Source of the DNA: Octopus vulgaris
Taxonomy: Eukaryota
Assembly: GCA_951406725.2 (NCBI GenBank)
Contig: OX597838.1
Location: 2,294,001-2,358,000 of the forward strand
Reading direction: 5' to 3'
Length of the DNA: 64,000 bases
In this document: positions 4,204 to 54,818 of the stretch, piece after piece
Layout: each line of letters begins with the position of its first letter
How positions within the stretch are numbered: position 1 is the first letter of the stretch
The notes under the pieces: model-generated
What the model saw: only the letters and a program-made list of their open reading frames with translations
Database searches by the model: none
What the model was told of the DNA's origin: nothing
Made by a program: the position numbers and the translations under genes

Positions 4204-4469
4204 TGAAAGAATATGTCCATTGGCCTCAGTGTGGCCAATTATCAAATCAACAACTTATATGGCATCAGAGAACCCGAAAGAATGCTTTTCGACCTTTGTT
4301 CGCCATCTTTAAATTCTCAGATGATATCCGTATCATCCTTTATCTTTAAGTTCCATACAATAAGCACATATCTATGAACTTGCCGTATCGAGCAGCCTTT
4401 CTCTAAGAATTTCTTGCCCTTGCGTCTAAATCAGATCCCATATTTTCATTGCACATATTCATTTAACAT

Positions 4470-52408: not shown

Positions 52409-52771
52409 GTGTATATATATATACCCACACACATAGATAAGGAGAGAGACTGCTGACACTATGGAATACGACTTGTGAAGTGTTTAATCGATCAGATCAA
52501 CTATGCTCAAAATGAAATTCTGGAACTCGTTTTATCGAAGCGTATTTGTTGAATTGCTAAGTTTCTTGATATGACACGGGACGCGCAATGCTGAACGTCA
52601 ATTTTCAAAACAAGTGTAACAACCACAGATTGGACACAAGCATAGCGCCGTCATATATATGTACATATATATATATATATATATATGTAGGTCCCGGGTT
52701 GAGTCGGGGTTAACCACAGTAAATAAGGTACTCAATACATAGAAGAGTAAATTAATTTATTTTATAGAAGG

Positions 52772-52822
52772 AGCTTCTACAGGACTAGAACTGTTTCATT
52801 CAAATGAAATCATCAGGAAGCT
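52772..52822 (-). ncRNA. Type I hammerhead ribozyme motif (mirror copy)
   Basis: Exact reverse complement of 52873-52923. Confidence 0.75.
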
Positions 52823-52872
52823 TGCTGTCAGAATAAGTTTAGGTATAAATGCCAAAACTTATTCTGACAGCA

Positions 52873-52923
52873 AGCTTCCTGATGATTTCATTTGAATGAA
52901 ACAGTTCTAGTCCTGTAGAAGCT
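52873..52923 (+). ncRNA. Type I hammerhead ribozyme motif
   Basis: agcttc-CTGATGA-t-TTC-attt-GAA-t-GAAA-CAG-ttctagtc-CTG-TA-gaagct; perfect 6-bp stem I, 4-bp stem III, GUA triplet, U-U at the base of stem II. Confidence 0.75.
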
Positions 52924-52936
52924 CCTTCTATAAAAT

Positions 52937-52981
<45 letters not shown>

Positions 52982-53492
52982 CATATGCTATAATTATAAA
53001 CAGGGCAAATTTACCCATTTCTCAACAGACTGCAAAAAAAAAGAGACGAAGAAGCATAATCGATTTTTGAAACTTATTGGTTTCTCATCAGAAGCGTCTA
53101 CAACATTCTGACAGTCTCCATATATATATATATATGTATATGTGTGTGTGTATGTGCGTGTGTGTTTATTTGTGTGTATATGTGGTGTGTCCTTTATGTT
53201 CGTTAACGGGAAACGTTTTGAATATGGATAGCAAAGCTCCCATTTCATTATGTCGGCGACGGCCTGATGATACCAACAAGCAATAAAGGTTTTATGGGCT
53301 TCTACCGAATTGTGTGGCTGTGATGTAAGATAAACATAGTAATAACAATAATGATCCTCGGACGGAATTAATAAATATTTTAATGCATCGCTATACGCGT
53401 TTCCACAAAACACATGTTTCTTACGATCATAGTCCGTATTCCTAAGGTGATTACGGTACAGACCCTATTATTCATACAGACCCTATTATTCT

Positions 53493-54030: not shown

Positions 54031-54043
54031 ATATATGAATATA

Positions 54044-54818
<775 letters not shown>

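Follow-up and report, generated by a model that had tools for sequence, protein, structure and literature searches.

An inverted-repeat check of the window, by which we mean the whole 64-kb stretch of DNA analysed here, confirmed that it contains a perfect 85-bp palindrome with a 14-nt spacer, as a preliminary description of the sequence had indicated. The two arms were exact reverse complements at 85 of 85 positions, pairing ended at the first base outward of the palindrome, and no second non-simple inverted repeat of more than 20 bp (arms within 3 kb) was found in the window. The palindrome had also been described as lying between (TA)n tracts; this was correct for the right side, but on the left a 69-nt element tail intervenes between the tract and the arm (Table 1). 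Twelve of the spacer nucleotides (52843-52854) are element sequence prolonging the right arm, and in element coordinates the tail-less copy starts 12 nt upstream of the start of the left copy. The insertion amounts to 253 bp in total (52687-52939), with no protein-coding part. Both of its ends lie within (TA)n, where a target-site duplication is not readable, and the last four bases of the left tract also match the element sequence directly beyond the tail.

Table 1. Features of the insertion and its flanks (positions in the window).
Feature	Position	Strand	Basis
Left (TA)n tract, target site	52653..52686		TRF
Tailed, 5'-truncated pLTR-end copy	52687..52840	-	97% match to the L065 pLTR end (151 nt)
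69-nt tail, this copy only	52687..52755	-	32-nt piece with 3,772 exact genome matches
Left palindrome arm	52756..52840	-	exact inverted repeat
Type I hammerhead motif, predicted cut between 52778 and 52777	52772..52822	-	mirrors the plus-strand motif
Junction filler, 2 nt, between both copies	52841..52842		comparison with both element strands
Tail-less, 5'-truncated pLTR-end copy	52843..52939	+	reference 168-264 versus 181-333 (row L001)
Right palindrome arm	52855..52939	+	exact inverted repeat
Locus-private substitution	52864	+	mirrored at 52831 in the left arm
Type I hammerhead motif, predicted cut after 52917	52873..52923	+	folding; Hydra-type U-flanked stem II
Right (TA)n tract, target site	52940..52980		TRF

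Among the frames of at least 120 aa in 40000-64000 no host exon was recognised, a threshold that short exons would escape. The window also contains a 198-codon open frame at 54039-54635 (+), which we take to resemble the C-terminus of a LINE ORF for reverse transcriptase, and an exact 17-nt direct repeat, with two copies 18 nt apart, at 53457-53491.

The hammerhead motif that had been proposed for each strand could be recognised in the sequence, with the core elements CUGANGA, GAAA and NUH and with stems I and III. In the putative plus-strand motif, stem I (AGCUUC/GAAGCU) is formed by 52873-52878 and 52918-52923; it is followed by CUGAUGA at 52879-52885, a 3-bp stem II with a U on each side at 52886-52897, GAAA at 52898-52901, stem III at 52902-52904 and 52913-52915, and the GUA site ending at 52917. 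Rfam reported no hammerhead family in the window at gathering score, and none among the 37 matches with E <= 10 in the palindrome region, where the miRNA matches merely reflect the hairpin; the ribozyme call therefore rests on the motif and on its variation in the family. Since a simple hammerhead regular expression gave no match in the window or in L079-L110, the motif was found by inspection and folding. Folding of a single arm predicted the formation of stems I and III. Stem II, composed of a U.U and 3 bp, received pair probabilities of 0.01-0.02, and a rival stem II register was preferred even in the single arm. A stable stem II closed by G10.1-C11.1 was not found, as U.U occupies that position.

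The arm proved to be multicopy rather than specific to the locus, a point on which the preliminary description had suggested a check. Scoring the best 40 of 280 candidates for the arm yielded 47 matching places, mostly with 98-100% identity. The 39-nt ribozyme core of the subfamily found in the window has 699 exact copies in the genome, whereas a 32-nt piece of the tail has 3,772. Two sets of loci were compared: a core-picked set, comprising the loci of 96 among the first 100 core matches (two known C3 pairs were left out), and a tail-picked set, comprising the loci of the first 30 tail matches. The span fetched per locus was 1.5-4.5 kb, and partners farther off escape detection.

Variation among the three common subfamilies was confined to the free position N7 and to loop II; the subfamilies were represented by 138, 28 and 20 arms, counts that come from partly core-picked samples and are not frequencies. 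The ribozyme table for the Hydra clade (PMC8557442, File S2) lists stem II as 3-5 bp long and flanked by one additional U on either side. The restriction of the variation to N7 and loop II, together with this Hydra-type U-flanked stem II, argues for a selected ribozyme motif. Metazoan ribozymes of Penelope-like elements (PLEs) show weak activity in vitro (PMC4209133), and the one from Anolis requires the element protein (PMC11167929). We also observed recurrent losses of 1-2 G within the four bases 3' of the predicted cut (52918-52921), mostly in one arm only, in 15 of 204 arms and in 7 of the 53 arms of the tail-picked set; deletions elsewhere in the arms numbered 0-4 events per 5-nt bin. The commonest of these losses perfects a 7-bp hairpin. 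They could stem from quasi-palindrome correction, from a systematic assembly error or from a reverse transcriptase crossing a cleaved template.

The proposed Penelope origin was supported as well: the arm is the hammerhead-bearing pLTR end of a young Penelope-like retrotransposon, and the insertion is an inverted partial terminal repeat, as anticipated, made of head-to-head 5'-truncated pLTR copies. Two longer copies, L064 and L065, reach the C-terminus of an endonuclease by way of a UTR that is rich in microsatellites and about 2.5 kb long; the pLTR end of L065 sits after the endonuclease gene and the 3' UTR. A search with this C-terminus, in which 150 of 18,632 candidates were scored, returned matches with 90-100% identity. 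The locus L091 is a partial tandem consisting of a pLTR with tail, a 722-codon open frame, the microsatellite UTR and another pLTR with tail, in which ATAT follows the tail and leads into the ORF. The subfamily of L091 is a sister to that of the window copy: over the common end the two copies are 93-95% identical, compared to 97% for L065. Its tail ends at 4223 and 9005 define a unit of about 4.8 kb, which is not under 3 kb because of the 3' UTR. Short ORFs beside six copies turned out to be microsatellite frames alone.

For the ORF of the parent element, Pfam gave nothing relevant (one weak unrelated match below the cut-off), nor did a sequence search of the PDB. Its structural model had a pLDDT of 93 and its best fold match was a telomerase reverse transcriptase (TERT 3du5, E 4e-9); the fold-search rows shown contained no GIY-YIG structure. 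When the query was aligned with 59 of 150 listed relatives of the protein, 4 of the 60 sequences matched RVT_1 and 3 matched GIY-YIG (PF01541), and Atlas neighbours of the protein carry RVT_1, HTH_animal and GIY-YIG. In the alignment YRDD is invariant and further reverse transcriptase motifs are present, while VY..YIG and the R, H, E and N residues of GIY-YIG are conserved in 98-100% of the rows. We also found RWR at 38-40 (the variable position is K in 39% of rows and R in 44%), DKT at 116-118, a linker of the form CxCx5C (C567-x-C569-x5-C575), C667-x2-C670 before E673 and C695-x-H697 after N686. The CCHH motif is absent, with one non-conserved Cys between VY and YIG. According to PMC8557442, RW[K/R], DKT, CxCx5C, CxxC-E and N-CxH without CCHH define the Hydra clade. 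As judged by its motifs and predicted fold, the parent is thus a Hydra-type EN+ PLE. Identity with Neptune or Nematis was considered and dropped on account of the linker CxCx5C and the absence of CCHH. Four motifs of the family had no match in the supplement of PMC8557442, where line breaks can hide matches, and it is apparently a Hydra-type family without an entry there.

Other Penelope-like open frames were noticed near family copies, at L077:4163-5260 (-), L071:5520-6068 (-) and L105:1657-3998 (-), and by eye these have GIY-YIG-type C-termini. Between TA tracts at L008:270-830 and L013:240-830, which are near-identical loci on different contigs, there is another palindrome, of about 550 bp and unrelated to the first. 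Its arms contain a hammerhead-like motif with UUGAUGA as the first core, a long stem II and a palindromic stem III loop, and it is probably the same kind of product of another Penelope family.

The head-to-head arrangement is common in the family, as pairs were found at 58 of 73 core-picked loci and at 24 of 30 tail-picked loci. The locus in the window is one of hundreds of counted mirror-image stubs, and their total in the genome likely runs into thousands. A tail was present on exactly one arm in 58/58 core-picked and 24/24 tail-picked pairs (82/82), the latter having been preselected for at least one tail. In 46/58 core-picked and 20/24 tail-picked pairs, the two 5' ends both fell on the 5' edge of the ribozyme. 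An identical junction, GAAGCTTC, is shared by 354 loci genome-wide and crosses the self-complementary middle of stem I; another, through both strands of stem I, is present at 29. At all 30 tail-picked loci TA repeats were present at the tail end or within a few bases of it. Twenty-two loci carried an ORF and eight of these had both arms, with the ORF on the side of the tailed arm in four and of the tail-less arm in four; therefore, neither arm can be taken as always copied from the other.

Termination at the cut site of the ribozyme was seen in none of the 24 tail-picked pairs and in one of the 58 core-picked pairs. This speaks against cleavage-truncated templates as a rule and suggests that the template was mostly uncleaved. 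In L181-L190, which belong to the 29 loci mentioned above, one arm starts exactly at the ribozyme cut and is joined via stem I complementarity; in 8 of the 10 displayed loci it is the cut-site arm that bears the tail. The 29 junctions are possibly a trace of a cleaved template or a matter of microhomology alone. A cleaved template is not required for them, since 6-7 nt of complementarity suffice as an explanation. Many copies (L003, L004, L007, L009, L014 and others) share a fixed start about 200 nt upstream of the ribozyme, immediately behind a TA run belonging to the UTR of the element itself, and the element may be cut or re-targeted inside its own microsatellite UTR.

Family identity, copy numbers, the parent ORF, the one-tail asymmetry and the composition of the junctions were observed directly, and solely from the geometry of the ends we infer how such insertions would arise. 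The locus is most probably a protein-less insertion of a Hydra-type PLE, in which two copies of the ribozyme end were laid down head to head with both nicked target strands acting as primers. The GIY-YIG endonuclease would introduce a nick into each strand of a TA tract. Priming from one of the 3' ends would take place where the tail ends, and from the other where the pLTR ends, about 69 nt farther upstream. With ATAT following the tail in the element and a TA-rich pLTR end, each of the two start sites matches the target by a few bases. Both antisense cDNAs would then stop early and be joined by their 3' ends, usually at the self-complementary AAGCTT in stem I of the ribozyme; in the window the join would lie 18-30 nt upstream of AAGCTT, with the 2-nt filler. 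The template RNA was likely uncleaved. Each window copy contains a piece of the element missing from the other, namely the tail on one side and the 12 spacer bases on the other, which favours two independently primed cDNAs. A Penelope protein studied in vitro cuts and extends both strands, uses two RNA start sites bracketing the tail, and employs mostly uncleaved RNA (PMC11167929). The strict one-tail rule is left unexplained by that work, which saw no difference between the strands in the choice of start site in vitro. Listings of the open-access literature gave no paper that treats either this family or twin priming by PLEs. The term twin priming itself comes from work on LINE-1.

Alternatively, the cDNA could snap back at a short palindrome and prime its own extension, in which case the second arm would be a DNA copy of the first. 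Junction palindromes in Penelope insertions have been explained by self-priming on an antisense template (Arkhipova et al. 2013, PMC3846280), the junction hotspot shared by 354 loci does lie on self-complementary sequence, and the short copies ending there are also compatible with self-priming. A further point in its favour is a substitution that both arms share. A 25-nt pattern containing this variant occurs genome-wide at two places only, which are the two window arms, and the substitution is absent from 100 of 100 other arms covering that column. Independent cDNAs explain such a base only if the source RNA carried it, and no source locus with the base exists in this assembly. Alleles seen in no other arm are likewise shared in 5 of 71 other pairs, a list that counts one near-duplicate locus twice. 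They also occur, however, in pairs whose arms are 0.7 and 3.6 kb apart (L068, L063), and this distribution fits the copying of both arms from one source RNA; a single conversion event or an effect of polishing is possible for the shared base in the window. The tail-less arm with its 12 extra element bases, facing an arm with a tail, is a further difficulty, as are the ORF-bearing pairs, in which the inverted pLTR joins the ORF or UTR kilobases away in both tail orientations (four and four of eight). In view of this mutual extra sequence and of the even division of the ORF sides, simple fold-back would need extra jumps, and we consider it unlikely.

The palindrome, or its perfection, could also be an artefact of assembly or polishing. 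Polishing is able to homogenise the arms of a palindrome. It could explain the shared private base, and among the pieces listed from contigs of four public DNA runs none spans the locus. Yet the locus has a different unique sequence on either side and its copies lack symmetry, features that set it apart from a fold-back chimera. Contigs assembled from public DNA runs contain head-to-head joints of the family, two of which (52809-52888 and 52822-52873) occur in runs that stem from two separate studies, which argues against a general assembly artefact, and a single junction is common to 354 loci. This explanation thus appears very unlikely to us.

The zero mismatches between the arms had been read as a sign of a recent event or of ongoing arm conversion. 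A recent event agrees with the 97% identity to the copy that is attached to the endonuclease gene. Ongoing conversion, by contrast, is not supported by the sibling pairs: arm differences stood unrepaired in 59 of the 77 pairs scored, at 0.023 per site in the core-picked set (77 events in 3,393 sites), which is biased towards arm identity, and at 0.025 per site in the tail-picked set (25 in 999). Perfect pairs made up 11 of 55 core-picked and 7 of 22 tail-picked pairs (18/77), mostly with 40-50 sites compared, and zero differences over 85 bp are expected with P of about 0.12-0.15. Perfect symmetry is therefore not rare and ongoing conversion is unnecessary to account for it. It had further been suggested that a read-through transcript could switch between a long hairpin and the self-cleaving fold. 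Judged by nearest-neighbour energies only, the ribozyme scaffold lies about 84 kcal/mol above the hairpin for each of the strands, and whichever strand is transcribed, its antisense arm comes before the ribozyme; given both, a switch is unlikely. A read-through transcript would rather fold as a fixed 85-bp hairpin with both ribozymes off, and the inserted stub would be inert. No RNA run was among the public sequencing runs listed for this sequence, which has no bearing on expression. The combined idea of continuing conversion within the palindrome and of a locus maintained as a functional hairpin/ribozyme RNA switch can draw on the 85/85 identity and on the one shared private substitution. It conflicts with the sibling pairs and the energies, with the other stem II register preferred by a single arm, and with the position of this locus as one among hundreds to thousands of similar stubs, and we regard it as highly improbable. 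That the palindrome is a MITE-like or retrozyme-like mobile unit copied whole is barely conceivable, since the recurrence of the same junction at hundreds of loci is offset by junctions that form a graded series and are found in all three loop-II subfamilies, by arms that match in subfamily within a pair, by a junction variant unique to the window, and by the lack of head-to-tail ribozyme tandems such as non-LTR retrozymes have.

Many parts of this picture are in line with earlier work. Inverted truncated pLTRs, one-sided tails and (TA)n targets have already been published (PMC3846280, PMC8557442), and so have ribozyme pairs on opposite strands (PMC4209133). The C-terminal EN+ PLEs of the Hydra clade, including Hydra-1_Obim from Octopus bimaculoides (Craig et al. 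2021, PMC8557442), have the same ORF motifs, the (TA)n targets and the U-flanked stem II of 3-5 bp in common with our family, the likeness to Hydra-1_Obim having been judged by eye from the supplement. Members of the clade are generally smaller than 3 kb, a tendency that is not diagnostic, whereas the window family reaches about 4.8 kb. Its tail, with 69 nt, is longer than the usual 30-40 nt of published elements, its stem II is A-U rich, and its stem III loop measures 8 nt, while those in the displayed Hydra rows measure 1-3 nt. Pen2a_Av of Adineta vaga (PMC3846280; PMC8557442, Fig. 2) is alike in its inverted 5'-truncated copy, its tail at one end and its junction palindrome; unlike that type, the insertion in the window has no ORF, and here the short inverted form is the majority product (24/30 loci), with a junction hotspot inside stem I of the ribozyme.

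The dual minimal hammerheads on opposite strands, about 100-700 bp apart, that were described by Cervera and de la Pena (2014, PMC4209133) resemble the arrangement in the window. In that study, Penelope hammerheads have a palindromic loop 3 and low activity in vitro, and the G10.1-C11.1 pair is called "highly conserved"; in our family this pair is U.U, and stem III has 3 bp with an 8-nt loop. The PAc/Poseidon element of Anolis (Frangieh et al. 2024, PMC11167929) is similar in the two RNA start sites bracketing the tail, in the AT-rich target and in the extension of both strands, and its ribozyme, including cleavage, is dispensable for insertion. It belongs to a different clade, and its ORF starts inside the ribozyme, while that of the window family starts after the tail. 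PAc showed no strand preference of the start site, whereas the genomic pairs of the window family always have one of each. The arrangement of a non-LTR retrozyme, with hammerhead units head to tail (bioRxiv 10.64898/2026.07.22.740005), was not found, as the copies are head to head.

Octopus has exceptionally many loci that form near-perfect dsRNA, along with strong hyper-editing, and in a lizard Penelope is heavily edited (PMC5625713). It is plausible that the hairpins of this family could serve as ADAR substrates. Extrapolating the 24 of 30 loci to the 3,772 tails gives about 3,000 palindromes. Whether these, together with sister Penelope families, would be a main source of the unusually plentiful perfect dsRNA that is hyper-edited by ADAR in octopus, and the one-tail rule the outcome of a dimeric enzyme that couples two fixed RNA starts to the two target strands, we offer as a speculation that is more doubtful than probable.

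Taken as a single locus, the palindrome carries little weight: it is real yet ordinary, an insertion of a Hydra-type family likely produced by both cut target ends copying RNA. The family, on the other hand, constitutes a large natural data set on Penelope-like insertion, with one tail per pair in 82 of 82 cases, a hotspot in stem I and hardly any ends at the cut site. It is also a countable candidate for the octopus excess of near-perfect dsRNA (PMC5625713), which could be tested with existing editing data.
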